Counted from the first letter of the stretch, positions 1,010 to 42,639 are shown. The stretch is 64,000 bases of DNA from Cyanidioschyzon merolae (GCA_000091205.1 AP006483.2), one strand, 5' to 3'. The notes: generated from the sequence alone by a model not told the origin. Program-made: numbers and translations.

Positions 1010-3052
1010 CTATTCCCGAATCAAACGCTTGTTTGGGTCGAAACAAACCCGCAGTGGATGCGCACCCAATAAACCAGCAAAGCTGAAGCGTTGCTCTGTC
1101 GCTGCTGCACAGAGGCCGGTAACACGTCGCCCGTGTCGAAGTCGTCGCCAGGTTTCGCGCAGGTGCCAGGGCTCCAAACATCGGGTGCTGTGCTTCGCGA
1201 AACCTCGCCAAAATACACGTCCCGGAGCCACGGTAAGCTCGAAGAGCTCCAACTCACGACGCAGCGCCTCGTATTCTCGTGTCTCCAGGGGCAGCACAAT
1301 AGCAGTGGCGATACCGTTGCCGAGTGCTGCCAAAATATGACGCGCTGGACGCCAACAGACAGCTCTAGCGTCACCACGTTCGTGTGCAATTTCATCATAG
1401 TGCCGAAAGAGGAGTGCGGCTTGCGTCAGTAGGCCGGTAAGCTCCCACGCGACGTGACCCAAGGCGTGCAAACCATCCTCGGTGACAATGACGCCCTCCT
1501 CTGGAGTCAAATGTAACCAGTCGCGGAAGAGGACGGCTCGTGTAACGCCCTGATGTGCACGCGACTCCCCGTACGTATACCGCACGTTTCGACACGCCAC
1601 AAAGTCTGCGTATTGATGTCGAGGCAGGCACTGTTTGAGAATAAAATCAGCTCGAAAAATGATCATGAATACTGGGTTTTCAGAGGAAGGCTTGCCCGAA
1701 CTCGACTCCGTACGCGTCTCGGACTGGACCTCGATCCAGGTCTCGTTATCGAGTCGGAGGCGTTTGCGTTTCGCTCCTGCTGCTGCTCCTGCTGCTGCAT
1801 TGGCTTCACGTTCACCGGTGTCCGGGCTCGGTTTCTGTGTTGAGGTCCGTTGCGCATGCGGCTCGGATGCTGCTTCCAGCTTCATGGTATCCGCTGCTTT
1901 CGCTCGTATCTGCGGAACGCTACGATGCATAGTTACGAGCGCCGGTTCCGCATCTGGAGTAGTTGCGTACTCGTGAGCCTGCGTAGAGCCTGGATATCCA
2001 CCAGGCTCGCGATGATTGGCGTGATCAGCGTCAGGGAGCGCTTCCGACGGACCGTCAACACCCGACGATTCATCCGCAACGCTCGTATCCAGTTGCAAAT
2101 CGTCTCTGGGGCCTTGGGAGAGGCGCTTCTCCTCAAGCGGTCTAGCCTCACCAGGTGCTGCACTCGTCTTTGTCGGACTTTGCCGGGCGCTGGCTCGCTG
2201 CAGTCGCTGCTCATGACCACCGGTGTCGTTCGAACGTGTTTCGTGTACGTAGTTGCCAGCGTTTTCCCCAACGGAAACGTCTGGTGCGGGCGTTACCACT
2301 CGATTTGTCCCCAGTACCGGTGTTTTCGGTTCTTCCACGTGCTGGCCCAAAGCTTGCGCTTCCACTGCTAAAGTCGCAGAGGCTGGCGTTCGTGATGCGA
2401 CCTCTGGTATTCGCTGAGCTTCCGCTGCTGGTTTCCTTCCCGACGTGGCATTGCCTGGGCCAGTCTTCTGAGCGTTTTGGGATCCAATTACGGCGCTCGC
2501 ATATCCGACGAGTTTGGCACTTGCCGTTTGCTCTACCATGCGGACAAGCCAGGAGCAGTGTGCCCCGCCTCCGGAGTGCGAGTCAGCGTCGTGGTCCGCA
2601 AAAGACGGAAGCGTCATTTCGGTTTCCTGCAAGAACGCCTCCAGTTCCGCCGCGGCCTCGCGGACCGGTCCCTTTGCCTGTTGTTTGGCCATGATTTCGA
2701 CGAGCTTACATAGCCTACGTAGCGCTCGCTGGTCGTGACAGAAGCGTCTTGCCACAGCTGCTGCTGTGATGCGGCCGTCGGGCTCTCGGGCCGCCACCTC
2801 CAGTGCAAAGAGCCGCACACCGTCCCGAACCATATCTTCCATGAGTTCCAGCACGTCGCGGGCACAGTACCGGACTTCCCCAAAGGCGTGCATAAGGCAC
2901 TGGATCTCGTGGCCAAACTTTCGACGTCTGACGAGCGTCTCCGGTGGGCCGTACGCAGCGGCCTCGAGGCTTCCCTCGGCACTCGCGATCATCAGCGCTT
3001 TGCCGGGAACCACTGCCGCCAGCGAAACCCCTTGGTCGTCGTACCCGTCCAA
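1010..3052 (-). CDS. Spt3/TAF13-family histone-fold protein (SAGA Spt3-like), 680 aa, two histone-fold-like ends separated by a long low-complexity linker
   Basis: A single uninterrupted 680-aa ORF. The N-terminal segment RRRKFGHEIQCLMHAFGEVRY..VLELMEDMV matches the TAF13/Spt3 histone-fold signature (K-x-F-x-x-E-I-Q-x-M-M-x-x-F-G-D). The C-terminal segment LFRDWLHLTPEEG..HALGHVAWELTGLLTQAALLFR resembles the second (TAF11-like) fold of Spt3. The middle ~350 aa is S/P/A/T-rich and looks disordered. Confidence 0.5.
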   Translation of the reverse strand: MDGYDDQGVSLAAVVPGKALMIASAEGSLEAAAYGPPETLVRRRKFGHEIQCLMHAFGEVRYCARDVLELMEDMVRDGVRLFALEVAAREPDGRITAAAVARRFCHDQRALRRLCKLVEIMAKQQAKGPVREAAAELEAFLQETEMTLPSFADHDADSHSGGGAHCSWLVRMVEQTASAKLVGYASAVIGSQNAQKTGPGNATSGRKPAAEAQRIPEVASRTPASATLAVEAQALGQHVEEPKTPVLGTNRVVTPAPDVSVGENAGNYVHETRSNDTGGHEQRLQRASARQSPTKTSAAPGEARPLEEKRLSQGPRDDLQLDTSVADESSGVDGPSEALPDADHANHREPGGYPGSTQAHEYATTPDAEPALVTMHRSVPQIRAKAADTMKLEAASEPHAQRTSTQKPSPDTGEREANAAAGAAAGAKRKRLRLDNETWIEVQSETRTESSSGKPSSENPVFMIIFRADFILKQCLPRHQYADFVACRNVRYTYGESRAHQGVTRAVLFRDWLHLTPEEGVIVTEDGLHALGHVAWELTGLLTQAALLFRHYDEIAHERGDARAVCWRPARHILAALGNGIATAIVLPLETREYEALRRELELFELTVAPGRVFWRGFAKHSTRCLEPWHLRETWRRLRHGRRVTGLCAAATEQRFSFAGLLGAHPLRVCFDPNKRLIRE

Positions 3053-3639
3053 CTAGTTGCAGAGGCCCCGTAGAGCAAGAGCACGCTCCTCGAACAGGTG
3101 AGGCAACAAAGGCTAGCTGCTGGTCGCAGCACACGACCCGGGCGTCCAGACAAGTCGCAGCGGAACTCGCTTCTAGTCCGATGGACGCTGTCGGAGATAT
3201 GGGTGCAGCGCAGCGGCGCCTCCTCGCTGTTTTGGCACCAAAGCGTTGCTTTCTGGATCTAGAGAAATCATGTGAAGACAACTTCGGGGTGCATGGCGAG
3301 TGTGTCTATGCATACGCCCGTGTCAGATGAATGTGGAGAAAATAAACTGCTCGCTCTGTTCCTGCCGCGGGATTCGTTTTCGAACACGCTTTTATGTATG
3401 GCGTTGTGAGTCGAAGTGCTGCAATACACGTTCACAGGTTCTTCGGTAGTTTTAGAATGCCAGGTCGTATTTTCCGAGTGGATCCTTGGACGCTTTTCCG
3501 CGGATATTTTTTTACCGTACCTGAATCAGCATAAACCTCGAGGCTCCCGATCAGGGGTTCTTTTATACTACCCGATAGCACCATCGAATTCAGATGTAGA
3601 TGCAAGCTTTCACGCTTCTCTTTTGCTGATATATGGCGT

Positions 3640-4215
3640 GCTCAAATCACATATGCTTCAAGTTTTCGATCTTTCCGGGTCAAGACAACGTGTGGGCCGA
3701 GCGATTTGCACTGTTGGATTGACGAGGAGCAAAACTCGGCATCGTCCTCTGAAGACTTGTTCGCCCACTCATGCGAAATGTCCACGGAACATCTCGCGTT
3801 CCGTAATCGATTTCGTTCAGCAGACAACGCTCCTATCGTTAGCGCTATAGGCTGAACGACTTTCCATAGTAGCATCGTTTGACTGACGGAATATTTGCTC
3901 CAAGAGGATCCCCTTCTCTTCTCTTTGCATGGGAATGCTTCTTGGATTCGGACCGAAGTTATCGCAGCGATTATTTCCGATAGACTGAGCTTCACCGCTT
4001 GGACGTATGGAGCGCTGACGACTCGAGAGATTCCTCAAATGGTTCTCCTGCCTTAACTTTCCCTCCGGTTCTTGTTTCACCAGGGACAAGATGGCGTTCC
4101 ACAATTCCCCAATTGGAATGGACAGCTCGCGCTTGCACGTACATCGGAAAGGGTACGCGCCCCGGGGAAGCAAACATCAGAAACTCGTCATCATCTTGCA
4201 TAGCACTGGGCACAG
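3640..4215 (-). mobile_element. Degenerate non-LTR (LINE-like) reverse-transcriptase fragment, family copy A
   Basis: Minus-strand frames give MPSAMQDDDEFLMF, a FADD/YxDD-like box, followed after a frameshift by WNAILSLVKQEPEGK and SLSEIIAAITSVRIQEAFPCKEK, which look like RT thumb-region segments. The DNA is homologous to 9540-9880 and to 57760-57960 (for example ccctccggttcttgtttcaccagggacaagatggcgttccacaattcc against ccatccggtacttgtttcatgatagacaagatcgcgtttcgacaaatcc). The reading is frame-shifted, so this is not an intact gene. Confidence 0.4.
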
Positions 4216-4649
4216 GAAAACCCGAGGGTATCGAGGCGAGTCCTCTGTGCCCGTCAAGGGCATGGAACTACCAAAAAAGCATGTTTTCACGCGTCATGGA
4301 GCGGCCTGCGGAGGAGCGAATCTTCTGGACTTATGGGCACAACTGACCTCTATCGTATGTCACAGCTGGAAAGGCGCACAGAGACCGTATCCAAAGATAA
4401 TGCACATGGCAAACGAAGCATGTATCGCAATATACGTCTGTGCATGAAATGCATGAACCGCAGCCGGGAGCAGTGATGTCGGGACGTTCGCTGCCATCAA
4501 CTTCCTGCGACTATCGATCAAGGATCTGAACGGAAACCTTCATCGGTCGTGCTCTTCCAGCCGGATCCAGGAGAGAATGGAAAGAAATCAGTCACAGGAA
4601 AGCCCGCAAATGTTGATGTTGATCACTCTGAGTAAAGACCCAAAGTTTC

Positions 4650-6120
4650 GCATGGACGCCCGAGTTACGGGGTTTCATTCATTTTTTCTTTTTATGTTCA
4701 GTGGAACGATAAACGTGTCACGACCAGAGAGTATATAGATACATGCGCACGCGCAGACGCCTTCCAGTCTTTTTGACGTGCGGTCTGCTATCGGTTTCAG
4801 CTTCGCCTTGTCCAATTCGAGTATGAGAGGGTTCCCCACAAAGTTGGATTGCGTCGGCTCCACGGGTCTCATCTTTAACACCGCACATCGCCCGGTTTTG
4901 AAAGCGGCGTTGAAGTCTGGGTGGACAAAGTCAGTGCGTTTATTGCCAGTGGTAGAACTCAGCGTTGCAGGCATTGCTACAACTCGCTCCCTCTTTGCCA
5001 TTTGGTGCCCCGTCAGCTCTCCATCATCTGCTATCGTCCAGGCGCTCCGCTGGCATTTCTCCATATAGACCTTCGGCATTGTATACCGCAGCCCATCCCT
5101 TGGTTTCTCTATTTCTTCAAATGAACGCACTTCTTTATGCCTTTAGGTGAGGACCTGCTTGGAGCGAGAGGGACTTGCGGAAGAAAGACGACATGAGCCC
5201 TGCTATGTCATCCTGTGCTGAACGCTTCAGTGATTCTCTCAGTGGAGCGATCCTCACGTTTCACGATAGAAAATACTTTTTCGATGGGGTTCAACCACAG
5301 AAAGTACAAAGGAATGAAAAGCGGCTGTTCTACCCAATAGAATTGGCAGAAAGCTCGACCGCACCGGGAATAGTGAAATGCCACGTTGTTTGTCAGAAGG
5401 ACATTGTCTGACGTCAAGGCAATAGTCTTCAATGATTCGACAAAGTGGTTGATGCTGTTGCTTGAGCCTCGTCTACCAGCGAAGCTGAGACAGCCAAGAG
5501 AATCCATTGCAACTAGAACGCATGGTACTGTCGTCGCTCTCATCGAGTTCGATCATACGTAGAACGGGCTCTCTTCGTCTCGGATACCAGTAAACGCTCC
5601 GACCGTTTGTTCCGATGAAACGCTCATCAAATGAAAAAAAAACAAACTGACGGCCCTGCGCTGTATACCGATCGCTGCGGCCTAGGAATGCCGGATTTGT
5701 CATTTCGGTGCGAGATGACCGTCTGTGAACTAGTGCATTTCACGCGATTTTATTCCATTGTCTTCAGAGCTACCCGAGCCAGCAGCATAGAGGAATAGAC
5801 GCCCGTGGTGACTAGAATCATCGCATTCGCTGTCTTTATGGTCATCAAAGCGCCGCTTTCCACCGTTGACCGCAAGCAGTCTCCGAGAATATCGGTTATT
5901 GGCGCAGTGCGCATACCCCTCTTTCCGAACCGTGTTCCTCAACCATATGCGTACTGTGGTATGCCTTACCGGATTGAGTAACTCAGTCCTCCTTGCACTG
6001 CTCAATAAAGAATGTATATTCTGCAGGCAATTCGTCTACGATCCATCCGGTACATTGCATCGCGACAGCGATCGCCTGCTATTCACCGCAGCGGAGTTGA
6101 AACAACCTCTACCTGATAGG
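4650..6120 (-). mobile_element. ~1.5 kb composite dispersed repeat carrying a Tc1/mariner-superfamily DDE transposase pseudogene (copy 1)
   Basis: Minus-strand ORFs give FVFFSFDERFIGTNGRSVYWYPRR, matching the Tc1 first catalytic-D region (LFSDEKKF.L.GsDG..VWRR). They also give LLTNNVAFHYS...FIPLYFLWLNPIEKVFSIVKR, matching Tc1 FQQDNAPCHT...LPPYSPDLNPIEnlW. The second D is mutated to N and the reading frames are broken. The whole ~1.5 kb is co-linear at the DNA level with 42640-44210, including shared end motifs tatttcttcaa(a/c)tgaacg...tatgcctttaggtgagga on the left and cagtcctccttgcactg...gcagcggag(a/t)tgaaa on the right. Confidence 0.7.
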
Positions 6121-6412
6121 CGATCAGATGACCGTCCAGAGGATCATGCGTGTGGATCAAGCAGAGCGATATCCAATTAGTCCCTAAAAATACATTTATA
6201 TCCATATACGTTCAGAAACGCATATCGCCATCCCGCAGCACCGGCCTGTGCGCGTCTGCCGCCCGCCCACGGCGCATCGTCGGAGGCGGATCACGCGGCA
6301 GAGGAGCGCTCGCGCAAGCCGCACCGCGACAGCTCTAAAGGATACAGCGCACTGACGTTGCAGCGTTCGCCTGCCATCGACGATTTGCCAACTCATCGAG
6401 GACGCTGCTCGC

Positions 6413-8068
6413 ATGATTGCTTTCCTACCATCTTCACATGGATGCAGAACGTTTTCTAGCATCAGGTGGTCGAGGTCCGGTGCTCAGCGGCGAGTTCGAG
6501 CAGTCGTAACGTGTTCACGGGGGAGCGTCTCGCCAGCGCAGGCACCCGGAGAGCCCAGTCAAAACTCCGACGAGGCTGCGGTGCGGGACAGGGAGAGCGC
6601 GTGGCGCCCTGTTGCCTGCAGCTCCGGGCAGCTGGTCACGAACTGCAGCTCACTGGTGCCGGCGTGCACGGTTGGTGCGGCTGCCACTGAACTTGCGTTT
6701 CCAGGGGCCTTGACAGCTCCCGGAGCGCGACTTTCCCGCAGCACCCAGCGCCAAAACGGTTTCCGAACGGAACCTGCTTCCTGTTCAGAGCGTTCTATGG
6801 AGATCTCGTGCGCGGCGGGGCGGGCACCTGCCACGACGCCGCTCTCGTACCGACGTGCACAGCGTGCTACCTGCCGGGGCCGAGTCGGGCGTCCACAGGA
6901 AGCGCCAAACGCCAGCGTCTACGAGTTTCGCGCAGGACAAAGCGTCAAAACTGCTGAGCTCGCACCTTGTGACTCGGACGTTGTTGACCCAAAAATAACC
7001 ACTCTCGTAGATGCAGAGCACCGAACTGAACAGGCAGCGTTGAATGAGACGCATCCTCGACTTCGCCAGATACCGAGGCCAACACACTGCGTCCCGCGAC
7101 GTGCGTTTCTCTCAATAGCCATTGCACTGGGCGTTGCTAGTCTTGGGAAACCGCTCGCTTCTGTGGCAGCAGCCGCAGCCGCAGCAGCACCGGCGTCTTC
7201 GAGCGCAGAGCCCGCAACTACCCGGATCCCGGGCGATGTGCGCATCCTCTTCTCTCGAGCGCAACGCCTGGAAGATGAGGGCGAGTTTCAAGAGGCCCTC
7301 AAGATTTACGCTTCGGTCGTCGATCGCGAGCCAGGCCTCGTCTGGGCATATGCTAACCGCGCAAACCTTTACAGTCGCCTGGGGCAGTACGATCAGGCCC
7401 TCGCGGACTACACACAAGCGATTCGGTTGCTCTGCAAGACGGTATCTGGAAACGAATCAACCGGAGACGAGCGGCTGACGGACGCTGACGCCCCGTGTTT
7501 GGAGCGCGAGCTATGGGTCCTCTACCTGAATCGAGCTACGGTGTACCGAACGCTTCGCCGCCACCAGGAAGCGCTTCGCGATATGAATCGAGCTCTGAGC
7601 ATTCGTCCGTATGAGCCGCTGCTCCTTGTAAATCGTGCAATGGTCTATGTGGATCTGGCGAAATACGATGCTGCCCTGTTGGACTATCAACGCGCTGTGG
7701 AGCGACGACCGGGCGATGTGCAGCCCTTCTGGGTAGACTATGCGTTGACGCTCTTCCAACGCGGACGTGACACCGATGCCCTCGGCATCATGCGCAGAGT
7801 AGCGAGTAAGCCGAGTTTTGCCCAGTCCGATGAAGTGAAAGCAGCCTACGCAGTCCTTCTTTATGACCGAGGCATGCTCAGTGACGCAGAGGGTCTATGG
7901 GGTGCGTTGCAGCGCCCACGCCGATTTCAAGACGAAAACTTTCTTCGAAACGAGCGTCACTGGCCGCCTCGAGCCATTGAGGTTGCGCTGCGATATCATC
8001 CACAACGTGGCAGGCAGAAGACATCATCTTCCTCGGCGGCGACCAGCCTGGCCCCTTCTACCGATTAA
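6413..8068 (+). CDS. TPR-repeat protein (at least 3-4 tetratricopeptide repeats in the C-terminal ~300 aa); true start uncertain
   Basis: The C-terminal half contains canonical TPR consensus units: AYANRANLYSRLGQYDQALADYTQAIRL, LNRATVYRTLRRHQEALRDMNRALSIRP and LLVNRAMVYVDLAKYDAALLDYQRAVERRP. The N-terminal ~250 aa of the ORF is Arg/Ala/Ser-rich. It may be a presequence or disordered region, or may not be coding at all. Confidence 0.45.
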   Translation: MIAFLPSSHGCRTFSSIRWSRSGAQRRVRAVVTCSRGSVSPAQAPGEPSQNSDEAAVRDRESAWRPVACSSGQLVTNCSSLVPACTVGAAATELAFPGALTAPGARLSRSTQRQNGFRTEPASCSERSMEISCAAGRAPATTPLSYRRAQRATCRGRVGRPQEAPNASVYEFRAGQSVKTAELAPCDSDVVDPKITTLVDAEHRTEQAALNETHPRLRQIPRPTHCVPRRAFLSIAIALGVASLGKPLASVAAAAAAAAPASSSAEPATTRIPGDVRILFSRAQRLEDEGEFQEALKIYASVVDREPGLVWAYANRANLYSRLGQYDQALADYTQAIRLLCKTVSGNESTGDERLTDADAPCLERELWVLYLNRATVYRTLRRHQEALRDMNRALSIRPYEPLLLVNRAMVYVDLAKYDAALLDYQRAVERRPGDVQPFWVDYALTLFQRGRDTDALGIMRRVASKPSFAQSDEVKAAYAVLLYDRGMLSDAEGLWGALQRPRRFQDENFLRNERHWPPRAIEVALRYHPQRGRQKTSSSSAATSLAPSTD

Positions 8069-9424
8069 TACGTCCAACGTCCGTGAATCTGGAGATGGCG
8101 AAACACGGCATCCCACAGACCTGGAGTATAGGTCTTATCTGCCTATATGCCGCGTTTTTCTTCCGGATGATCTGCGTTCCTGGTGCACGCCAGGCGTGTC
8201 GTTGTACCTGGAGATGGACCGATCGGCTCTATTTATGCGGTGACGCATGCCCGTGCGTATCCATCCAGCTGACAAGCAAATAGAGCATGCACGCAAGCAC
8301 ACCCGCAAGTAGACAGGCAGGCGGGACAGCACCAGGACCTCGTGCGAGCGACGGCTGCGTTTGTCAGGATAACAACGCGTTGTCCTCGTTCGGGTCTGCG
8401 TGGCGCAGGTCTGGTTCCATAAAAAGCTCTCGACTAACCGCTCGTAACCACACACTTACCGGGCACAGTATCCTATGCTGTGCTTGTACGCGTCGGAGCA
8501 GCGCCAGACTTGCCTCCGCTGTACGACAACGACGAGTGCTTCTGCTCGCGAGCTGGAGCTCGACTCGCGCAGTTGCCCTTCCCAGGGTCCAGGTCGAACA
8601 GAAGTGGGCTATGGTGCCGCCTCTTGCACTTTCGGTGTGTCAGGCTCTCCTCCTGCTGTCTCGGAAACGGGATCAGTACCTAGCGTTTGGGCTCGCCCGT
8701 CCCGCACAGCCTCTCTCCGCCGCCGGATCTCGCGTTCGAGTCTCGCGTAGTGCTCACGTCGTGCAGCTAGCGTTTCGTTTATCCGCGGAACGAGCTCGTT
8801 TAGCCCTTGAAGCAGTACAAACGTACCAGCAACATAAATCGCGAACCGTACAAAGGACGGCATCTGTGTTCAGCACGACTCTGGAGAACGTCAGCTGCAG
8901 ACCCGGACTCGCGCATCACCTGTCGTCAAGGTTTAGCGGCTGGCAGCGGCTTCCGGCACGCGACACCCGTACCTGATCCTAGCGTGGGACGCTGAACTCC
9001 TCGAACTATCCTTTGCATGTGGACTTGTTTCCAGACTTTATTCATCGATGGTGAGCTGCCACATTCCAAGTACGGCAGTGTGTGTGCTTCCGGATTCAAC
9101 CGTCGTTTTCGGATCATCAGACGTCTTTTCCGAGTGGCTCTCTGTTGACGCTTCGCTGGTGCACTCTACGATGGCATCGGAATTGTGGTAGCTCGTGATG
9201 CCGTTGAAGCGGGACTCGTAAAATATCTGACAGCATGACCCGGTGCATATATACAAGCCGCCACGCTTCTCCGCTGGATACCCCTTGCATGCTCAAATCA
9301 CGCGTTCTTCGGATGGTCGATGTTTCCGTTTCCGGGCAACTCGTGAGTACTCTCCATTGCATCGCTCGGTATGATTTGAGCAAGTGCACACGACGGTGCC
9401 CGTGACGATTACCTCTTCACAAGT

Positions 9425-9885
9425 TCATACCAGAGGTTCACGGAACTTGTCACGTCGTGTAATCGAATCCGTTCGGGTGATGAATGCGCTTCTCTGTGTG
9501 GCCGTCAACGGAACGGCAGGCCACCGAGGCATGGGAACGCTCAGCGAATGCGCTGTAGAGGCTCGTGTTTCTTCGCTTTGCATGGGACAGGGTCTTGGAA
9601 TGCGACTTGAGTCATCGCAGCGATCGCTTTCAGTTGCGTATGGGTCGCAGCTTTGCACATAGCGAGCGTGGATAGATCGAAATTTCTCGACTTGAGCTGT
9701 AGCGTAGATTTTCCATCCGGTACTTGTTTCATGATAGACAAGATCGCGTTTCGACAAATCCTCTGTCGAGTGGAACAACGAGCTCTTACGTGTGCAGCGG
9801 ACACCGAATTCGCTGATGACATCGTCCAGAAGAAGCCGAGAATCGCTCGGTACGGCACCAGGAGAAGAAACGGAGGGCATCATCG
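9425..9885 (-). mobile_element. Degenerate LINE-like RT fragment, family copy B
   Basis: Minus-strand frames give SRLLLDDVISEFG, a FADD-like box, and RNAILSIMKQVPDGK / LKAIAAMTQVAFQDPVPCKAKKHEP. These parallel copy A (WNAILSLVKQEPEGK / SEIIAAITSVRIQEAFPCKEKRRG). The DNA is similar to 3850-4180 and 57780-57870. Confidence 0.4.
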
Positions 9886-10712
9886 AGGCAGGCCTGCTTT
9901 ATGCGTCAAGAGCATGTCGAGGCCAATGAGGGAAATGTTCATGCGCGCCACAGGATGGCCCTTCGACGAAGAGGCGTTGTGCTGGACATCTATGGAAACG
10001 CCTGATCACTGATCGATAACTCCGCTACAAGAAGCGCATCTTGGTCGTATACACACAAAATGAGAACGGCAAGCAAAGCGGGCATCGCGACTTCCATCTG
10101 TGCATGAACATCGAAGCAAACAGCCGAAAATAGTAAAGTCGGGAATCCTATGCTGCCACCAACATCCGTGTTTTGCTGACACCAGAGCTGGAAGGCTAGC
10201 AGAGAACTTCGTAATTTAAAACGTTGGTAAGATAGGGGTGCAGGCAGCAGAGGCAGAAAGACCCGCAATGGCTGGTGCTCGTGAGCATGCGTGAAGGAGT
10301 TTACTTTAGCAGGTATCAAGCCCCACCCCCTCGGGTAGCAGCCTAGACACGTCCTAGTTTATGTTGACATGAATGCACTGCGACACCTGCCCGCACCGCA
10401 ACGGTTGAGGTGCGTCCCTGTCATTCCTCATGCTTCGACTGTGAAACTGATTCACTCCCAACCACCGAGCAGTATCACATAACAGTAGACGTATCCGATG
10501 CCTTGGACACAGCACTTCTGACATGGGATGAGGAAAAGTTTGTGGGTGCAAGCGCTCGCGCTGGATCCCGTGACTGCGTCAGCGGCATAGACAGGGCACC
10601 CCGCTTCACCGAAGCCAGCGTTCGTTGGCACCAGATGAAGCGCATGTTCCGGGATCGTACAGTAGGATCGCCTGCGTATAAGGATGCTGTGCATGACGAA
10701 GGAATGATAACC

Positions 10713-11336: not shown

Positions 11337-12010
11337 GATCCTGCAGGCGCAAGCATCCGTTGTTTCACACGTGAGCAGCGCCCTATCGACGTTCGACTAG
11401 CGCCATGGTTGTAGAGAGGGATGCCATCGCGTGCGGCAATCGCTACTGCTACTGCTACTGCTACGGGTTACTGATCCTGGAGGCGCAAGCATCCGTTGTT
11501 TCACACGTGAGCAGCGCCCTATCGACGTTCGACTAGCGCCATGGTTGTAGGGAGGGATGCCATCGCGTGCGGCAATCGCTACTGCTACTGCTACTGCTAC
11601 GGGTTACTGATCCTGGAGGCGCAAGCATCCGTTGTTTCACACGTGAGCAGCGCCCTATCGACGTTCGACTAGCGCCATGGTTGTAGAGAGGGATGCCATC
11701 GCGTGCGGCAATCGCTACTGCTACTGCTACTGCTACGGGTTACTGATCCTGGAGGCGCAAGCATCCGTTGTTTCACACGTGAGCAGCGCCCTATCGACGT
11801 TCGACTAGCGCCACGGTTGTAGAGAGGGATGCCATCGCGTGCGGCAATCGCTACTGCTACTGCTACTGCTACGGGTTACTGATCCTGGAGGCGCAAGCAT
11901 CCGTTGTTTCACACGTGAGCAGCGCCCTATCGACGTTCGACTAGCGCCACGGTTGTAGAGAGGGATGCCATCGCGTGCGGCAATCGCTACTGCTACGGGC
12001 TACTGCAGCG
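11337..12010. repeat. Minisatellite: 136-bp unit x ~5 tandem copies (last one truncated), each with an internal (GCTACT)3-4 hexamer microsatellite
   Basis: The anchor ggcgcaagcatccgttgtttcacacgtgagcagcgccctatcgacgttcgactagcgcca recurs at 11346, 11482, 11618, 11754 and 11890, giving an exact 136-bp period. The units are near-identical, with rare SNPs (catgg/cacgg, agagaggg/agggaggg). Confidence 0.9.
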
Positions 12011-13410
12011 ACATCCGTCCCGTATCGCTGTTGCTGCGAGGAAACAGCTCGCTCACGGATTCCAAAGCGTCCCCAACGTTCCAAGAGTCAGGTGCTGCCG
12101 TGCGCAGATTCCATGGTACGTAGACATTGCGAGTGACTCGCGCGCACCCCGGCCGTCGGATGCCAATGAGGATCCCCGTACCCACACCTATACCCAATTC
12201 AAACTCGGTGAGAAATGAAGGCATCGGCACGCGCTCGACACCAGATGTGCGTTATGCGCAGTGTTGTCGGGAAAAGCTGCACGCAGCTGAACACTGTCAC
12301 CAGTACCGCTGCCTGAGATGTGCACGGTCCCGCGAATCTTGTGCCCCGCGCTACGTTACGGAGATTGACTTTGGCCCATCGGCAGCGACCTTCAACATGA
12401 CAGGTCCAGCTACCCGGATATGCACCCGAGTCCAGCGATTCATGCGCCCTGCCACTGGTGGATACCGAGCACCGGCCCGCATCACGAACCGACAGCGCAT
12501 TCACACACGAGAGAACGACATGAAAACTCGGTACCCAGCATTCGCCCTCATCGCGGGTCTGCCCCAAGGCGGCGCGCTGTGGAGGCAGGCCTATATTCGC
12601 AGGGTGCACCAGAACAATCTCACGATGAAGCCCGAGTCGGTGCAATACGAACCACACCTCAGTCCGGAGCGTCGCGTCAGTGAACTGACAGAGCCGTACG
12701 CGCTCCATGCTACTGCATCCACACCTGCACTATACCGCCGCTATAGCGAATACACACAGCCGGCACCCAGCACATACACACACACACAAGCACGTGAAAA
12801 ATAACCGGTACCTCCGAGGCCCAGAATGGAGTCTGGAATCTGTACGTACGGTGTGCTACCAGCCATGGACGCTTCACCATACGCTAAGACCAAGCGTGCA
12901 ATCAAGAGTTCCTAGATTGGCCTCCTTACGTATGTGTATATAAAGAGAAGCATCGCCCGTCGATCGCCTCGACTTGAAAACGCGGCATCTGCGATGCGCC
13001 GCTGCGGCGCTTGCGACGTCGCCGCAGCTTCTTGACGCGGTAGCGCACCTGAGTGTGTGTTTCACTACGCGAAAAGGTATTGCTCGCTCATTTACCGAGC
13101 GTTCGTTTCCCAAGAGTCGACGAACCCCACGTAAATTGATCCGTATTGGACCTGAGAGTACAGGTCTGGGGCTTACCGACTGTAATCAGGCCACATCGAA
13201 AGAAAATACTTACGTACTCAAGGCAGTTCCCGGGCGAGCGTTTGCTTTGGACCTGACTGGTGCGGCGCTGTCGTCGTGTCGTTTTTACCGCTTCACCAAC
13301 GCTCATTAACCGAGATCGGCTTACCTAGCCGTCTTGGTAGCGAGTAGAGACGCCTCGGGATATCGAGAATTCCCGACAAGGTACCTGCACTCGCCAGCCC
13401 GTGCCGACGC

Positions 13411-17994: not shown

Positions 17995-18339
17995 GAAAAC
18001 GAACCGTTCACCAGGGATATAGAGGCGACCCGCTCCTCCACGGGCTCTGACGTTCTCGCGAGAGCCGCGGGTACGAACCCGCGTTACCGCAAGCGGCTTT
18101 GAACTTTCAAAACTTGAAAGGAATCCCTAATCCCCGGCCAACGGCACTTAAGGGAATACCCTCCGTTAGATGCGCGGACCGATGCGGAATCGATGCATAG
18201 GGCGCGGCGCACTGCAAGAGCTGCGCTTGCGTGAACGTGTGACCTGCGCACCCCTGCCGCCGGCAAATCCCTTAATTCAAGATCCCGCGCAGACGCTGCA
18301 ACGTCCGGCGATGCCCCTTCTCCCGATGACAAAACGTTG

Positions 18340-18560
18340 ACCTTGACTATTGGATGGTAGAATGCGGGATGGGTATTGGCTTTCGGGACAGTAACCACCA
18401 TGCTGCATCCTATCTTCAAGTTCCATTACTTGTTCTCGGATGTACTCTTCATTTCATGGGTTCTATCGTGCGCCAAGTGCCTGTAGTTCGTTTCCTTTGT
18501 CGCGATGGCGGCGCAGGTGCGGATGGTACAGCACAGAGCGATGACGACTCTGTCAAGCTA
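18340..18560 (-). mobile_element. Short fragment of the same LINE-like repeat family (copy C)
   Basis: Shares gatgggtattggcttt..cttcaagttccat..ttcatgggttctatcgtgcgccaagtgcc with 57770-57900 (gatgggtattggcttt..cttcaagttccacc..tcgtacgttttatcgtgtgccgggtgcc), in the same orientation. No readable ORF. Confidence 0.3.
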
Positions 18561-21321
18561 CTGTGAAGATTCGGATTGAGGCCTCATTCAATTCATGCCG
18601 CGTCATGTTTCGTCGTCAGCTTGCATACAGAAACTCTGCATAGGCGGGCCTGCCTTCGAGAAACGAAGCGTCTGAATGCCCCTCGAGATGTGCATGAATC
18701 CCGGGGGGTCCGTGCTACCCCCTTGCGATCGCGTGTGCGCAATGCATCGTCCGTTCGCGAAAGGGAACGATTGCTCGGTACCTACCCGAGAGGAGGTGTA
18801 CGTATCGCTGGGCCCACGTACGCAACTGGTTCGCGGGACCTTTCATTCAGAAGATCGTGCGTGTGTTTTTGTCGCGACCCGAGGGCGTTGCGGCTCGGAT
18901 GCAGACCCATCAGTTGCCAGGTCCGTACTCAGCCGGTGTCGTCTCGCGTTACCTTCTATGGTGACACCCAGAAGCTGTCGTCCCTCAAAGAGGAGGCTGC
19001 GTTCCAGATACCATCGTGGTCGCTGTATGCGCACGTGTATCGGAGTCTCAGCGTTCGCATCCTGACACCAGGTGCCGTATGACTCGTACTGTGTGCATCC
19101 AGAGTTCCGACACGACTCAGAGACAGGGCGTGCGGGCGAGCCGAACCCCCGTCGATGCGAACTTTGGCGAGCCGACGGGTGCATCGAGCAAGCTCCAGGG
19201 ATCCGAGCGCCTCCCGCCAGTACTCGCGTGTACTTTCCAGATCGTAATCCCAAAGTAATATCCAGTCACCGTTTACGACAAGACTGTTGCCAAAATGATT
19301 CGTAGACCGCAGGTTGTAGGCATTCGGAGCCTCGTTATAAAATAACAGCGGACGACTAGAGTGTATGTTCGCCGGCGAGGCGCTTCACCCAGATCTGAGT
19401 CGACTCTACCCGAGTACGCCTGCGATGCAATCGCGTGGATGGGATTATCCTGCCACGCTAGGCGCGCTTGCTGGGCACTGTAACCCATGAGCGTACTCGG
19501 CCAGTCATCCCGACTGCCGAATGAACGAAATAACTAGTTTTGCATGCCACCAGGGTCGCGCTGGAAATACACCACACGCCCTCAGCTGTCCAGCAGCCAA
19601 CTTGCACCACAGATGCCCCAGGCACGCCTCGCCGTCTCCGAAGCGCATGCCTGGGTGACCAGCGTCATTGGCGCATCAGCAGGGAACGAAACGCAATGCA
19701 CCCGTCTATCCTATCGCCTGGAAATGGCAACAAATGCATACATACGCGGATGTCAGATGAAATCCAGTCCTTTTGGGCGCCGTGAGCATTGCCTCCGCGT
19801 CGCAGCGGATCACGCCAACCCGATGGGATCCATATGCACGAGAACGTTGTGCTCGATATCCGCACAAAACCTCACGATGCTCTTCATCCATCTCTATGCA
19901 TACGTGCCGCTACGTGATCGACGCACACGATGATACCCGTTCTGGAGCAGGTATCGTAACCGTTCGGGAACTCGAAAGCAAGCATCCGAGGCAGGGCCGC
20001 ATGAAGCGCAACCTCTCGCCAAGTAGGTGTGTTGCGGGCAACGCACGCCCGTTCTTTGGTGCGAGCGATGCATCGGTAGCGTTCGTCTGTCAACCGTATC
20101 CCGCATCCGCCACTGATCTGGGATTCCTCCGACAGAGGACGCGTCGAAAGGCCTCGGACGCACCAGCGATGCAGGTCAGCGCGACGATGCCGACGATGCC
20201 TCTCATGTTGTCGAGTGACAGCGTACCACGGGGCGTTGCCTGGCGTGCCTGCTCTGGTGTGCTCCGGGGCGCCAAGAGTTGAATGTACTCCCATACCAAC
20301 CGAATGCCTGAGTGTCGTTCAGACAGACCTGCTGTATTGGGACGCTTCGGGTCGTTTGTTGTACCGGCCTCGACTTGAACGCGTCGCCACCCTTCGATCC
20401 ATTCTTCTGCCATGCATCAAGCAGCAGCGGTACGACGGTACCAGAGCAGCGCTATCAACGCTTTCGCCCGCAAACGCACCTTGTGGAGTACCCGTTTCAT
20501 CTGGCGCAAGTACTGCTTCTCGCGTGCCGTGCATAACCTCTGCGGAGGGCGGCGGGGAAGGGGGCCAAAAACTCCTGGTACCCCGCTTCATGGCGCCAGC
20601 TCGTGGACTCGTTCACGCGTGCCCGCTGGTTTGCAGGCTCGAGGCGTGACGGGTAAACTGGGGCCTGCTTCCCGCTCCGAAAGTCGTCTGAACACCGGCG
20701 AGTACCTGGGCAGCAGCTACGCAGCAGCATCGACGCACGATCCCGCGACTGCGCTGTGCTCAACAAACATCAAAACGAGGCACAGACACAAAAGTTGCCT
20801 GGTGAAGACCCGCCAGACCAACACTTCCCCGCACGATAAAAATGGGCGTCAGAACGAGGCAGTCTGCGGTTCATGAAACACGTGGAGGTCTGGAACGGTT
20901 TCGTGGTTGCCTCCCTGACTGCCCGTAGGCAACGCACGTGCGGAAGCTGCCTGGTTAGATCCGTTGGCCGTTGACAGTGAAAAGAATCAGAACGGGTCTC
21001 CGTTCCGCTGTCTGTTGCGGTCTGTGCTGGTAAATAAACAACAGCGCCATGCTCCAGTACACTTTGAACGCTTTACCGTGGCGACGCGAAAAACACAAGC
21101 TTGATTTCCGGCTCGCCGACTTGCCTTGGAGAAACAATCGGTCCAGCTTTCCGTAGTCTTCCCTTGTCGGCCTCCTATCACTTTCCTGCAGCCGTGACGA
21201 TCAACAACGCCTCAGATACCTGTGTGCTCATGGCATCCCACCGCGCAACAACTGGGCTCCATCTGGGCGTAGCATGCGAGGCACGCGCGACGACTTGTTG
21301 TACCGCGCGCTGCGCTCGTTC

Positions 21322-24289: not shown

Positions 24290-24485
24290 GCGTGCGTGCG
24301 TGCGCAGCGGCGATGCGGCTGCTGCCGGCGTGCTGGTGATGCTGCCGGCGTGCGTGCATGTACGAATACGTGCGTGCGTGCGTGCGTGCATGTACGAATA
24401 CGTGCGTGCGCGCGTGCGTGCGTGCGTCACTGCCTCGATGTGATCGATGCAGGTGTCAGCGGCGAGCGAGCGAGCGAGCGTTCGC
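24290..24485. repeat. Simple-sequence tract: (GTGC/GCGT)n alternating purine-pyrimidine repeats with a duplicated 34-bp unit (gtgcatgtacgaatacgtgcgtgcgtgcgtgcgt) and a (GCGA)n run
   Basis: Direct read: gcgtgcgtgcgtgcgcag..., the unit tgcgtgcatgtacgaatacgtgcgtgcg occurs twice, and gcgagcgagcgagcgagcg at ~24465-24482. The tract lies ~450-650 bp upstream of the ODC start codon at 23832. Confidence 0.8.
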
Positions 24486-27400
24486 GCGCGCTCCCACAGC
24501 CGCAATCGATGCGATCCTCGGTGCTGGGTGTCGATGCACGTACGCATCCATGCATCTATGTACGTCAGTACTGTAGAAGCTAGTCGCTCGCATCTATGGG
24601 TATGCTTCATCATTGCATACACCAAGGAAGACAGTCAGCAACTGGCGACCCGAGTGCTCAGCGCTGCCCGCATCGAGCGCCAGTAGCGCTCTGTGCATGC
24701 AGCAGGTAGCCTACGCAGCGTCGAGCAACTCGAGCGGCATGGGCGATATCTCGAATCCATACGGCCGTCTGGGCTGGAGCAAATGGGAACAGATCGGAGC
24801 ACCGTGGTGGACACATCGGCACTGATGCCCGATAGAAGCGGGGCATCATACAGAGGAGGCAGCCGCCGACACCGGTCCGCTTGTGGATCGGCTTCCACGA
24901 AAGCATGCTGCTTGCCGGAAACGGTGTCCGAATACCGCGCAACAGCGAATTGGACTGGTGCTGGTGGGCAATTTTTACGTTCTCTTCGAGTTGCCTGGTG
25001 TCTGCTGGCTCTGAAATGCATCTGGAGCCGTCGAATGCATCGAAAGGCGTTGACGGAACGATTGAGGGCGTTCTCGTATGCACTGGAACGGTGGATGTCT
25101 CAACGTCGCACCCGAACTGCATTGAGCTGGGTATCTGTCGCCAGGCTGTAGCCTTCGCGCTGTCGCCGTATGTCATAGGCCAATAGTCGGTCTGGGAGGT
25201 CCTTGCATGAGTGCCAGGCCCGTGCATTCGCGTAACCCTGCTGCTGGAAGCGTAGCGCCAACATTCGTGTCGCGGCTTCCGCCTGAAGCACATCAACTAC
25301 TTCATGGATATCCTGCAGAAGAGATGCAGGCTCAGCCATACGTATGAAGCTGGCTGCAAAAGTGATGCGTCTCTGCGATGCAAGGCAGGCAACTGAAGAT
25401 CACAGGTGGTTGTTTCGGGGCCCAGCACGAGACACGTTCCCGTGAGAAGGCCATTTCCTGGCTCGCCAGTATACCCTGTATCATCTCGTTTTTTATTTTT
25501 ATGAGGAATCGACCTCAGCACTGGACCAGTTTTCACAGACTGAGCGCGCGTGCACCGGAATCGAGAGCATATCCGTATGGAAGGCTTTCACTGTGACGGA
25601 CTGTTCTGAAATGCTCCTTGCCAGCCAGCCAACCAGCCATCAAGCACCAGCGTCTTGGATGGACTCGAACAAGAGACTGCAGCCTGTTACGCTTGACCGG
25701 AATGCCACGAAAGCCGTCGACGAAACGCTGCTCACCGTCTGCGCACGACTGCATCGGGCAAGCGTCTGTGAACCCGGGTGCATCATGCGGCCCTCTGTGC
25801 AACGCCTGCCCGCTAGATCTCATACGCAGAGCATCTTCGCAGAGTCTCATTCTTAGTGTCTATCGTTCACAGGCATGATCATTACGTGCCCGCAAACTCT
25901 GTGTAATGTCGCAAGCGCCTATTCCATTCGCTGACGTCTTTAGTTCGTCATGCATTTCACTCGAGACGCAAAGGCATATCACAGAACGCATCCAGCTTCT
26001 CAGACGCGGCCGTGACCTCTGGAACATACAAAACAACATCGTGTATTCCGGTATGCGCGCTCCTTGACGCTGCGCCAAGCAAAGCCCTTCCCAGTCGTCT
26101 GCAGCCGCCGTCTCGAAGCGTCGATGACCATCGACAGCCGCTCAACACCCAGATCGGCATGAAAGGGGACGACTTCTCTACCTCGGGTGTGCACACTGAA
26201 GTTTGAGCCACCTCTAACTATGGTGAGCACCAGCATTTGCTGGCTTTTTCTGTAACAGCGTTCTTTTCTTCTCACCTCTCTATGGATTTACATACGCCTG
26301 TCTATGAAACACCTCGAGCTCTGTTATTACACTCGAACGATGTTCATGGCGGCAATAAACTCCCAATTTCGTTGCTTATGGCCGCTATCAATGCATTTCG
26401 TACACGGGCAGAGGATACGTTCCGTCCTTCGCTCGACGTTTCCATCTTCGTTCTAAACAGTCACAACGAGCTCTGCGCAGCGACGACGCTTGCCAGTGCT
26501 CAGGTGTGCCCAGAGGTCCGCCACATCACAGGCAAGTTCCAGGGGTGCCCCGTGGCATGCGAACGCCTGCTTCATCGCGTCGTACCCGCTCTTAAGGCGC
26601 ACACAAGGCCTCCGTCGACGTCCTCTTCTGCTCTCGTGCGCATTGCCGTGCTGTACGCTCACGGGCTTCTTCGAAGCGATGCTCTCGGCGAGTATTCCGT
26701 CCGCTGTACACGCAAGCGAACGCTGTTCCATTCCATATTGGATTTGTGGACTACGATGTTGTCCATGATAAAACGAGAACCAGAAGGACTATCCAGACTA
26801 GGGAACACGTCCATAAAATTTCGTTCCATCTACGTGTCCTTCATGTAACGCTGTGACGCAGTCTCAACGGGAAATGATCGCAGTGATGACGCAGATCCGA
26901 GTCCAAGACCCGTCTCCATTCAGACAGCCAGGAACAATGTCATGTTTTTATGCTCCTCAATCGATCGGTGCGAATTTCGGCATCCTCGCATTGCCTTGAA
27001 CCAGAGCGATCGAAAACTGGAAAGAAGCCCGCTTTTATCATGCCACTTGAAAGCAAAAGAGAAGCGTACAGGCATGCATCTCGGCATTGAACAATGATTC
27101 CTGTCATTTCACGAATCCTCGTTCGACACCATGTCGAATCATCTGGATCCCGAGGACGCACCGAATTCCAGCAGCTCAGCCTCAATGGAACAACTTTTGA
27201 AAACCCGACCGAGTATTCAGAAACGATCTATGAATCCGTGAGCCCTCATTGCTGCATTCGCAAGTCGAGGATGTTCATCCAAAAAGTACATCCGAACAGT
27301 ATCGAAAGCCAGCAACAGAGTGCCAAGTTTCGTGTTCCATTCTCACCCGCTACAGATAAAGAGCATATTCGCTTCTATCCAGTCATGGATCATACCATAT

Positions 27401-40531: not shown

Positions 40532-42639
40532 TTACAGCGTCCCAGTACGGTTGCGTGACCCACCAGTGATGAGGGCGCTGTGCTCTTGCCACACGACTGT
40601 GCTGCACCCGGAGTCGCAGTACGGAGTTGGAAAAGTTGCCGCACTCGACAATGCCAGACGACTCGAAATGTTCGAAAGCGTCATGGCGATATTATGGTAC
40701 ATACATGAACATTACGCCCTCGCCTGCAATCCGCACCGCCTCCTTAAGTTGCGGATCCCATGCTCCCGCTACTGGCGGTGGAGATTCTCTGTGCGCTCGT
40801 CGCGTTCTAGGAGCATGCCTCACAATGCAGAGGCACCGCATTGCATCGAAGACACCTCGTGATAAGTCGTTGATGCGTAAAGGCTCGATGAGGCGCACAC
40901 TTTTCGATTATGCGCTGCGGAATCGTGCCAGCTTTCCAGAACGGATGCCACGAAAAGCGCTAATGAGGTGCTTTGCCCTGCAGCTCGCAGTTGGCGGTAC
41001 GTAGATCTCTGGGCTATTGCCATGGATGTGCATTCGTCTGCACACGCTGCCTCGAGGTCAAAACGATGCAGCTTCGGATCAGCATAGATGGCTCGAATGC
41101 TGTGCTCCGGGCAAGTGCCTGCCGTTTTCGGCTTCTGCCGGTGCCATGACGCAGTCGTCGTGCGGGAACACGGGCATACACTGGGAATCCCGTTCGCAGT
41201 GTCGACTGCGACGTCGCTGTCGCCGCGCACAGGATCCGCTTCGGTGGCGCGGGACGCTACTCCCCGGAAGCGCGTGTCATACAGGCTTCGGCTCTGATCC
41301 AGATCAAGGCCAAAGGTTGCTCGCAACTTTTTCAGCAAGTCCGCTGGGCGTATCATCATCGTCGTCATGGTTACCAGAAAGCAGTTGCTTTCGTCTTGCG
41401 TTCAGGAAACGGCGACGATGCCGAGCCCTGATATGTAGCCGATTCGAGAAGGCGCGGCAGTCCCGTACTTTGCATTCCGAGCAAAGCTGTTATCGAAGTG
41501 CTGCTAGTCGTCATCAGGACGTCTGAAGAGGCTCTAAACGAAGCAATGAATAGATAATCTTTTGTGAGGATGAATCTTAGACACGGGTCGCGCGATACAA
41601 GAGAGAGCGCAGCTCCACTGCAAGCGTGCGAGCCTGGTGCCCACAGCCAGACTGCTGTTCGGTTGGAGCTACCCGGCGGCGGGTTTTGCTACCGTACGCG
41701 TCGTGGAATACCGAATCTTCTACACCCGAGTCAGAATTAATGGAGGGCGTCCTCCACCACTGGCATACGCATACGAGTTTGCATGTCTTTCCATGGTCAT
41801 CAGAACTAGACTTTGCAGGATTTTTCTGCAGCTGCTTCCGTTCCGTTTCTATAGTATCCGGTTTCACATATGCCGGTCTCTGCCTCGCCTCGAGTTTCAG
41901 TGCCAGCACTCGGAGGGCGTTGGTGCCAGCGCTCAAGTCCGAATTATGCCGATTCCGGTATTTCCGAAGCATTTCATGCACGGGTGGAGATTGCGATGCT
42001 CACCTTCTTCGAAGTCAGCGTCGATGAACTCGTCGAAGCGTTGCCATTTGACTATAGTCAGTTGTTCCCGGATGTTCGTGACCACTTCTCCGCCGAGCGC
42101 CGCCTTGGAGCGCGTAAACGCATGCTTCATCACTGCGTATATGGTTCTTGACAGGTTTAGAATGCCCGCCTCGATAAGCACTCCCATTTTCGCACCACGA
42201 GCGGTCCGCGACGCTCAAGGGCATTTCCTGGGCAATGCGTCCTGTGCAGACGCTGGCCGCTGCACGCCCAGGTGCACGCTACGCATTTCGATAGAGAATC
42301 CGCGCAACGAAATGAAGTACGCGGTAAACTAAAGTAAAGGAAGGAGAACCCAGGCCCGAGATCAAGTCGAGAAATTTTGATGCTTCTAAACTTCTTTTGT
42401 GGAAGCAGTGTCGTACGCACCACTTGACGCTATCGCTGTGATGATTCAGGTCTAAATTGAAAACACTTTTGCATGCAAACAGAAGAGGCGGCTTCCTCTA
42501 GCAACGTATCTTTCGAACGGTATTATACTGGTTTCCAATGTTGTTTCATAGATGGCCACTAAGAGATGAGGATTCGTCATTCCAACGGAATCCATTAGTT
42601 TACTTTAGCCTCTCAGTGAGCTTTCGGCAGGAGCTTCTG

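Follow-up and report, generated by a model that had tools for sequence, protein, structure and literature searches.

The window analysed here, a single 64-kb stretch of DNA with a G+C content of 55%, contains long ORFs free of introns that encode common eukaryotic housekeeping proteins, among them a TFIID subunit, a TPR protein, EPSP synthase, a CXC protein, ornithine decarboxylase, an ABC1 kinase and HSP90. Cyanidioschyzon merolae is an intron-poor red alga. The HSP90 ORF (60555-62924) is identical to BAM78771.1/XP_005535057.1 of C. merolae strain 10D, which identifies the window as a gene-dense part of the genome of this alga. Between the long ORFs lie spacers of 3-4 kb, in which all of the features of the window derived from transposable elements (TEs) are found. 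Twelve pieces of recognisable TE debris were counted in the 64 kb, and most of the long intergenic spacers of the window contain some. A sequence-only reading of the same DNA had described the intervals 3640-4215, 9425-9885, 18340-18560, 57700-59100 and possibly 63650-64000 as four to five copies of one LINE-like reverse transcriptase (RT) repeat, all in the same orientation, intergenic and decayed. The intergenic location was borne out, and stops and frameshifts were seen in all of the pieces.

The window was compared with itself by blastn, tblastx and nhmmer, and the repeats proved real but weak. Mutual comparison of the five intervals gave significant similarity within two groups and none between them. 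In the first group, the repetition of 3640-4215 was confirmed: it matches 9291-9813 on the same strand (nhmmer, E = 8e-34), as well as 26636-26927 (E = 4e-21) and 42235-42710 (E = 8e-21) on the opposite strand. The suspected copy at the window edge is also genuine, since the full copy around 3640-4215 (copy A, 3553-4617) aligns with 63510-63993 in inverted orientation (E = 1.5e-20). In the second group, the DNA similarity between the intervals at 18340-18560 and 57700-59100 was reproduced (57724-58229 versus 18327-18839, E = 7e-37), and 57724-58229 also matches the inverted 12412-12909 (E = 8e-22). No search linked 3640-4215 or 9425-9885 to 18340-18560 or 57700-59100, so that the count of four to five copies had merged at least two unrelated families and had missed three copies (C, D and G below). 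A self-inverted nhmmer match at 19968-20262 was not reproduced by a separate repeat search, and an Rfam search of the whole window found no family.

A five-copy family homologous to Fanzor1

Five copies of the first group were defined by MAFFT and nhmmer, with an alignment of ~1.06 kb and pairwise DNA identities of 55-59%. Copy A (3553-4617, plus strand; DNA profile E = 1e-282) contains 3640-4215, and copy B (9208-10279, plus strand) was delimited in the MAFFT/nhmmer DNA alignment. Copies C (26226-27121; DNA profile) and D (41802-42710; DNA profile and nhmmer) lie on the minus strand and are the members of this family that had been overlooked. Copy H (63495-64000, minus strand; DNA profile E = 5e-109) is cut by the window end. 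The coding strand is thus plus in A and B and minus in C, D and H, in each case opposite to the strand on which RT had been read, and a single orientation is not found.

About 200 nt past the stop codon are common to the copies in the alignment. In copy A the shared 3' non-coding sequence may extend to ~4700, as indicated by the 3' flank alignment. Similarity of copy B to copy C reaches ~9141 and the 3' flank of B runs to ~10385; the flanks of C extend to about 26150 and 27189, and the 3' terminal sequence of D to 41719. RNAalifold gave -2.3 kcal/mol with a covariation penalty for the shared 3' flank and no supported structure, although decay would erase an omega-RNA signal anyway. No omega-RNA, terminal inverted repeat (TIR) or target site duplication (TSD) was established for the family.

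Fanzor1 proteins are eukaryotic homologs of the bacterial RNA-guided nuclease TnpB and are carried by DNA transposons. Read on the coding strand, the majority consensus of the family is ...EHLTTVRCHRCE...CMKC...NRDFNAAINIL, and a longer consensus reading of the same strand is ...PVIVRHGTGRKNGGGHRGGPSVPVKSM*RAMKHAF...DIWEHLTTVRCHRCEERIEAVYKEDENGKRSMHRNFRLCMKCIENSRKQ*NRDFNAAINILRV, with asterisks for stops. Its C-terminal part has the form LTTVRCHRCE-x17-CMKC-x9-NRDFNAAINIL, which individual copies retain in part, and carries the TnpB/Fanzor zinc finger and the RuvC-III motif. TnpB and Fanzor proteins are defined by the C-terminal motif [TS][TS]-x-x-[C4 zinc finger]-x(5,50)-RD (Bao & Jurka 2013, PMC3627910). 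The consensus has both the [TS][TS]-x-x-C4 zinc finger and the RD, the C-terminal hallmark of these proteins. The consensus, as distinct from any single copy, also matches Pfam PF07282 (Cas12f1-like TNB) with E = 1.8e-7 and 31.7 bits, above the cut-off of 26.3.

Searches with the consensus retrieved four intact metagenomic proteins, P0001-P0004, with E-values from 6e-36 to 8e-26. A profile of these four proteins was run by hmmsearch against stop-to-stop fragments of the actual window sequence and recovered all five copies: A at 4166-4366 on the plus strand (E = 5e-9), B at 9752-9946 (E = 1.3e-15) with a RuvC-III remnant at 10140-10196, C at 26755 to 26462 (E = 6e-14) and 26422 to 26333 (E = 0.03), D at 41966 to 41802 (E = 1.6e-5) and H at 63688 to 63578 (E = 0.011). 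The tblastn results were concordant, with a match of P0001 to copy C (E = 2e-12) and a match in copy H at 63938 to 63849. An exhaustive profile search collected 584 relatives at E<=1e-3, mostly 600-850 aa in length.

The same four-protein profile aligned with CMe-1, the published Fanzor1 protein of C. merolae, with an hhalign probability of 97.9% (E = 6e-13). Its sole relevant PDB match was the Parasitella parasitica Fanzor1 9cf0 (E = 0.009), made through the ETDGVGVSI...DPGR block. A PDB sequence search with the Fanzor consensus itself returned nothing. An AlphaFold2 model of P0001, the closest intact homolog, built from the four-sequence alignment, had a pLDDT of 38.7 and was unusable.

Significant protein homology of the consensus corresponds to residues 301-512 of P0001. 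For the first ~170 codons of the shared unit (the 5' ~500 nt), no significant match to Fanzor1 was obtained. A broader HMM built from 44 Fanzor1 sequences was less sensitive than the four-sequence HMM and missed the N-terminal half of the copies; a weak extra match at 26021-26242 (E = 0.004) was judged unreliable. Inspection by eye alone shows stretches in the 5' part that resemble ETDG (AIDGTTFHSSIV) and KGLDPG (KGLGFGP). The RuvC-I aspartate is expected 125-275 residues before the zinc finger, within GLDPGR of the intact homologs; the stretch that corresponds to it by eye in the consensus is KGLGFGP, in which the Asp is lost. From these homologies, the family is assigned to the 3' two-thirds of a Fanzor1-type gene.

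The intact relatives share with characterised Fanzor1 nucleases (9cf0 of P. parasitica and SpuFz1; PMC10432273, PMC10530073) the ETDG...DPG block of RuvC-I, the [TS][TS]xxC zinc finger and the RD of RuvC-III. Of these, the window consensus has the two C-terminal blocks, namely the zinc finger and RD. Unlike the characterised nucleases, the window copies are pseudogenes, and this allows no claim of an omega-RNA, of an intact catalytic site or of activity.

PF07282 is common to TnpB, Cas12f and both Fanzor clades, and the contig that bears the closest intact homolog is virus-like and also has RNA ligase and Peptidase_S74 genes. Both observations would suit an alternative origin of the family, for example by horizontal transfer, in Fanzor2 or in a TnpB of prokaryotic type (IS200/IS605 or IS607). 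Nevertheless, the only relevant structure matched is that of a Fanzor1, with the ETDGVGVSI...DPGR block typical of Fanzor1, the profile strongly matches CMe-1, the founding Fanzor1 protein, none of the bacterial TnpB models in NCBIfam gave a match, and no TnpA or serine-recombinase remnant was seen nearby. Such an origin is therefore considered highly improbable, and the Fanzor1 assignment is retained. The virus-like metagenomic contigs that bear the nearest intact relatives hint at virus-mediated spread.

All five copies are pseudogenes. Each has 3-8 in-frame stops or frame changes, and an intact ORF with the catalytic triad was found in none of them. A tblastn search with the family consensus covers 3604-4485 of copy A with five in-frame stops, copy B is split into four frame segments with eight stops, and copy D has six stops. 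Identity between the copies is 0.564, 0.581 and 0.554 at the three codon positions. This lack of codon-position bias argues that the divergence reflects neutral decay after insertion. The Jukes-Cantor distance calculated from 55-59% identity is ~0.64 substitutions per site between copies, and each copy would have drifted neutrally by ~0.3 substitutions per site since its insertion. The ancestor, while active, would have encoded an omega-RNA-guided RuvC endonuclease, as characterised for Fanzors (PMC10432273, PMC10530073), and would have been propagated by a DNA transposon. The copies are presumably without function today; nothing points to any present function.

The antisense frame and the LINE-type remnant

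The minus frame from which RT-like peptides had been read in 3640-4215 and 9425-9885 is the codon-aligned antisense of the Fanzor frame, and in the consensus it is open for 208 codons. It stays open because a stop there needs a TTA, CTA or TCA codon in the sense frame, and these are rare in a GC-rich gene. The RT-like peptides arise from this shortage of stops in the codon-aligned antisense frame of a GC-rich gene. Both the 'NAILSLVKQ' segment and the 'FADD-like' box fall in the antisense frame, within the portion of the unit for which an alignment to Fanzor1 proteins exists. Opposite the FADD-like box lies the PVIVRHGTG region. A Pfam search of the minus-strand frames of 3500-4700 and 9100-10300 (copies A and B) found no RT family at E<=1, so that the peptides claimed there as RT have no profile behind them. 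An RT profile and RT proteins of C. merolae-type elements gave no match in A, B, C, D or H, and a PDB sequence search with the RT-like peptide returned nothing. The lesson for method is that a stop-free antisense of a GC-rich gene, combined with short motif likeness ('FADD', 'thumb'), can mislead, and that strand-aware profile searches settle the matter.

Two copies retain long ORFs in this frame, at 26237-26848 (plus strand, 203 aa) in copy C and at 41637-42332 (plus strand, 231 aa) in copy D. Together with the open consensus frame, these ORFs might be taken for real host genes, the repeats then being a small gene family. The antisense consensus, however, has no meaningful Pfam match, the frame is broken in the other copies, and the divergence shows no codon periodicity; moreover, its openness is already explained by the codon alignment with a GC-rich sense gene. 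The chance that these ORFs are host genes is considered close to negligible.

A genuine RT remnant lies elsewhere in the window. On the minus strand upstream of copy E (described below), the peptides KASGTDGILTEWHK, IPDVREIAEVVPILK, NYSGVTLIS and E*AGFQ occur in the order of non-LTR RT motifs, and the remnant at 58233-59524 (minus strand; tblastn, hmmsearch and blastn) comprises the N-terminal part and RT motifs 0-2. The frame-corrected peptide retrieved P0006, annotated 'retroelement, alive [C. merolae 10D]' (PF00078), with E = 1.3e-25, along with four metagenomic relatives. An hmmsearch with a profile of P0006 and these relatives matched 58855 to 58270 with E-values down to 6e-31, and tblastn with P0008, a relative of the C. 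merolae retroelement, matched 59249 to 58233 (E = 1e-48). At the DNA level, 59524 to 58233 is 74% identical over 1.3 kb to related elements on two contigs (L006 and L007). Relatives of the remnant match Pfam RVT_1 (E = 2e-23), and their best PDB matches are R2 and LINE-1 ORF2p.

The remnant, which is frameshifted, breaks off at 58233 and therefore lacks its 3' end. The homology stops there although L006 and L007 continue, and copy E adjoins (58229 versus 58233). Relaxed tblastn searches found RT motifs 3-7 neither downstream of 58233 nor in copies F and G. At the protein level, 58233-59524 is 52-67% identical to the C. merolae non-LTR 'retroelement' (BAM80536.1/XP_005536572.1) across the N-terminal part and RT motifs 0-2. 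Unlike that element, the window RT copy is a single locus, frameshifted and without RT motifs 3-7, and it is unrelated to 3640-4215. Judged by homology, 58233-59524 is the only true non-LTR (LINE-type) RT remnant in the window.

Four N-terminal RT motifs had been proposed at 58024-58458. VVPILK and NYSGVTLIS stand, in the RT-homologous stretch 58276-58500. QNRLDF is a near-miss, as the true motif, EQAGF (58220-58273), had been read out of frame, and RTDNAF falls inside copy E and is not an RT motif.

Pieces of CMe-1A in the spacers

CMe-1A is a Fanzor1 element of C. merolae of 3169 bp without TIRs, present in ~150 copies that are ~80% identical to their consensus (Bao & Jurka 2013, PMC3627910). 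Its 5' 635 bp are 95% identical to the whole of TE-N2_CMe, which has ~70 copies (PMC3627910). The CMe-1A consensus sequence given in Additional file 2 of the 2013 survey (Bao & Jurka 2013, PMC3627910) was used in searches of the window. Copy E (57725-58229, plus strand) is a non-coding copy of the CMe-1A 5' end, the part shared with TE-N2_CMe (blastn 79% identity to CMe-1A 6-267; nhmmer 5-517, E = 2e-50). Copy F (18324-18855, plus strand) is likewise a TE-N2_CMe-like 5' end (blastn 81% to CMe-1A 1-164; nhmmer 1-533, E = 2e-35), as is copy G (12388-12913, minus strand; nhmmer CMe-1A 26-533, E = 2.5e-18), which had not been listed and is inverted relative to E and F.

Copies E, F and G show no codon periodicity, and neither the RT profile nor RT proteins detected homology in them. 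The intervals 18340-18560 and 57700-58229 are accordingly CMe-1A 5' end copies, 79-81% identical to the element, where RT had been proposed.

A separate Fanzor1 remnant of the CMe-1 type was found at 37789-38729 on the plus strand (tblastn with CMe-1 residues 371-702, E = 2e-14; nhmmer CMe-1A 2170-2966, E = 5e-20). It retains the IETDG, VDPG, YGAGR and RD motifs. By DNA similarity (nhmmer), this remnant, copies E, F and G and parts of two further loci, XA and XD (see below), are copies of CMe-1A.

The reading of all listed intervals as decayed copies of one LINE-like retrotransposon with RT on the minus strand can be weighed against these results. It draws on the true RT remnant on that strand at 58233-59524 and on the unusually stop-free minus frames of copies A and B. 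Against it, no frame of A, B, C, D, H, F or G matched an RT profile or protein, no DNA similarity connects A and B with E, F or the RT remnant, and the openness of the minus frame comes from its codon alignment, in antisense, with the Fanzor frame. In addition, the opposite strand matches Fanzor1 proteins with E-values down to 1e-15, which refutes the reading for 3640-4215. As an account of the whole set it is extremely unlikely.

The proposal of LINE-like debris thus survives in part: the spacers do hold decayed TE fragments, and one of them is a real RT (58233-59524, minus strand; E = 1e-48), whereas the other listed places are not. The intervals 3640-4215, 9425-9885 and 63650-64000 are Fanzor1 pseudogenes on the opposite strand, as supported by the profile, by CMe-1 and by 9cf0. 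The window repeats are not one family, are not in one orientation and are mostly not RT. Very probably, then, the spacers hold the debris of several unrelated, long-dead TEs, with 3640-4215 belonging to a five-copy, ~1.1-kb Fanzor1 pseudogene family, E, F and G representing the CMe-1A 5' end and 58233-59524 being the sole LINE-type RT remnant. The debris consists of dead copies of already known transposon types, described in this very genome, and its biological importance is small.

Lineage and possible carrier of the five-copy family

The five-copy family and CMe-1A share a genome and a protein clade (the hhalign link described above), and both survive as old copies, most of them dead, in which TIRs and TSDs cannot be recognised. 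Pieces of CMe-1A also adjoin two of the five copies. These points could indicate that the family consists of very diverged copies of the published CMe-1A. The two consensuses, however, have only a 29-nt stretch of DNA in common, at the NRDFNAAINI motif, and nhmmer with CMe-1A did not find A, B, C, D or H. At the protein level, identity of the translated family consensus is 24% with CMe-1, as against 39-40% with the metagenomic P0001 and P0002. The zinc-finger spacer of the family is shorter than that of CMe-1A and its 3' non-coding sequence is different. Descent from CMe-1A is thus regarded as very unlikely.

The lack of a CMe-1A DNA match beyond 29 nt, together with 24% versus 39-40% protein identity, argues for a separate and older Fanzor1 lineage. 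The five copies are also more diverged (55-59% pairwise) than those of CMe-1A (~80% to the consensus). The 2013 survey lists one Fanzor family for C. merolae (Bao & Jurka 2013, PMC3627910), and the lineage of the five-copy family may so far lack a name. The compact C. merolae genome contains at least two Fanzor1 lineages differing in age.

Next to two of the copies lies a further repeat, here called repeat X. Locus XA (4706-6097, minus strand; Pfam and nhmmer) comprises a DDE_3 (Tc1/IS630-like) remnant at ~5150-6097 followed by the CMe-1A 3' end, corresponding to the Fanzor1 C-terminus, at 4706-5096. Locus XD (42741-44157, minus strand; Pfam and nhmmer) likewise has a DDE_3 remnant and the CMe-1A 3' end (42741-42993). 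XA and XD are 68% identical over 990 nt. Their matches to Pfam PF13358 (XA, E = 1e-4, 22.5 bits; XD, E = 7e-3, 16.7 bits) are both below the 28.6-bit cut-off. In XA, CMe-1A 2737-3124 aligns with E = 5e-42, and identity to the CMe-1 protein is 48% over its residues 616-721; in XD, CMe-1A 2834-3086 aligns with E = 4e-25.

XD is immediately upstream of copy D and shares its strand, so that the minus-strand order at 41719-44222 is DDE_3, CMe-1A fragment and copy D. This stretch, from DDE_3 to copy D, is bracketed by a 17-nt inverted pair (41719-41735 and 44206-44222) with 15/17 matching positions. By chance, 0.06 matches to the 17-nt motif would be expected in the window; two occur, one of them present by construction. 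No TA duplication was found at the pair. At the 5' ends of A, B and C the motif was not found, and XA has only a degraded version.

The arrangement at 41719-44222, a DDE_3 remnant and then a Fanzor1-like gene on the same strand within an inverted pair, resembles the mariner/Tc1-type carriers of Fanzor1 exemplified by PUl-1 of Pythium ultimum (Bao & Jurka 2013, PMC3627910). Unlike PUl-1, the DDE_3 matches are below the Pfam cut-off, there is no TA duplication, and the PUl-1 mariner transposase gave no significant alignment with repeat X. The other four copies of the family also differ from the PUl-1 type in having neither the transposase half nor a 5' inverted repeat. It is conceivable, but on balance doubtful, that the five-copy family is a second, older C. 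merolae Fanzor1 lineage, absent from the 2013 survey, with repeat X as the remains of the Tc1/mariner-type (DDE_3) transposon that carried its Fanzor1. The mariner-type reading of repeat X and copy D is offered as a lead only. If true, it would provide the first superfamily assignment for the so far unclassified Fanzor elements of C. merolae.

XA, for its part, is arranged tail-to-tail with copy A. A 111-aa ORF product annotated as 'transposase', P0010, with a precomputed PF13358 assignment, is 97% identical to XA and represents essentially the same sequence.

Transposase remnants joined to the CMe-1A 3' end

Repeat X occurs twice on the minus strand, at 4706-6097 and at 42741-44157, and its two copies are 68% identical. 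In each, a decayed DDE_3 (Tc1/IS630-like) transposase is fused to the 3' end of CMe-1A, the published C. merolae Fanzor1 element. Because CMe-1A was published as unclassified (PMC3627910), its junction with a transposase may be relevant to how it is classified.

Neighboring element remnants lie no more than 100 bp apart at 4617/4706, 42710/42741 and 58229/58233. A copy of the decayed Fanzor1-like family adjoins each of the two X copies, with a relative orientation that differs between them, while the end of the RT remnant, a non-LTR fragment, coincides exactly with that of copy E, a CMe-1A 5' end (58229/58233). The abutting remnants at these three junctions suggest nested insertions or a common target preference.

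A 17-nt inverted pair (41719-41735 and 44206-44222; 15/17 complementary) spans 2.5 kb and encloses both a DDE_3 remnant and Fanzor-like copy D. The motif has two matches in the whole window, namely the pair itself, one of them by construction, versus 0.06 expected. The two arms may represent the TIR of a Fanzor1-carrying transposon of the mariner type, but neither is flanked by TA, and the pair was not seen at the other copies in the window.

An intact relative in a metagenome

Among intact relatives, the metagenomic protein P0001 is the one closest to the dead five-copy Fanzor1-like family. Its gene occupies 5569-7224 of a 7757-bp contig (L004; JGI metagenome 3300035702; G+C 55.7%), and neighboring genes encode an RNA ligase, a 2H-SAK protein and a Peptidase_S74 protein. 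The genomic setting looks viral.

Further features of the window

A further remnant of Fanzor1, belonging to the published CMe-1 type and absent from the list of the sequence-only reading, was found at 37789-38729 on the plus strand (tblastn E 2e-14), with the motifs IETDG, VDPG, YGAGR and RD. Two plus-strand ORFs, 203 aa at 26237-26848 and 231 aa at 41637-42332, lie on the strand opposite Fanzor-like copies C and D, respectively. They are explained not as genes but as the antisense reading, in codon register, of a GC-rich gene.

The spacer containing copy F, another CMe-1A 5' end, also holds a weak self-inverted match at 19968-20262 (nhmmer E 6e-7); a separate repeat search found no inverted repeat there. 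A short GCGTGC-rich tandem repeat lies at 24348-24421 (32-bp unit, 2.3 copies, 97% matches). Between Fanzor-like copy B and the CMe-1A 5' copy G, a 136-bp unit is repeated in tandem (11337-12006; 4.9 copies, 98% matches); this array is much younger than the debris around it.
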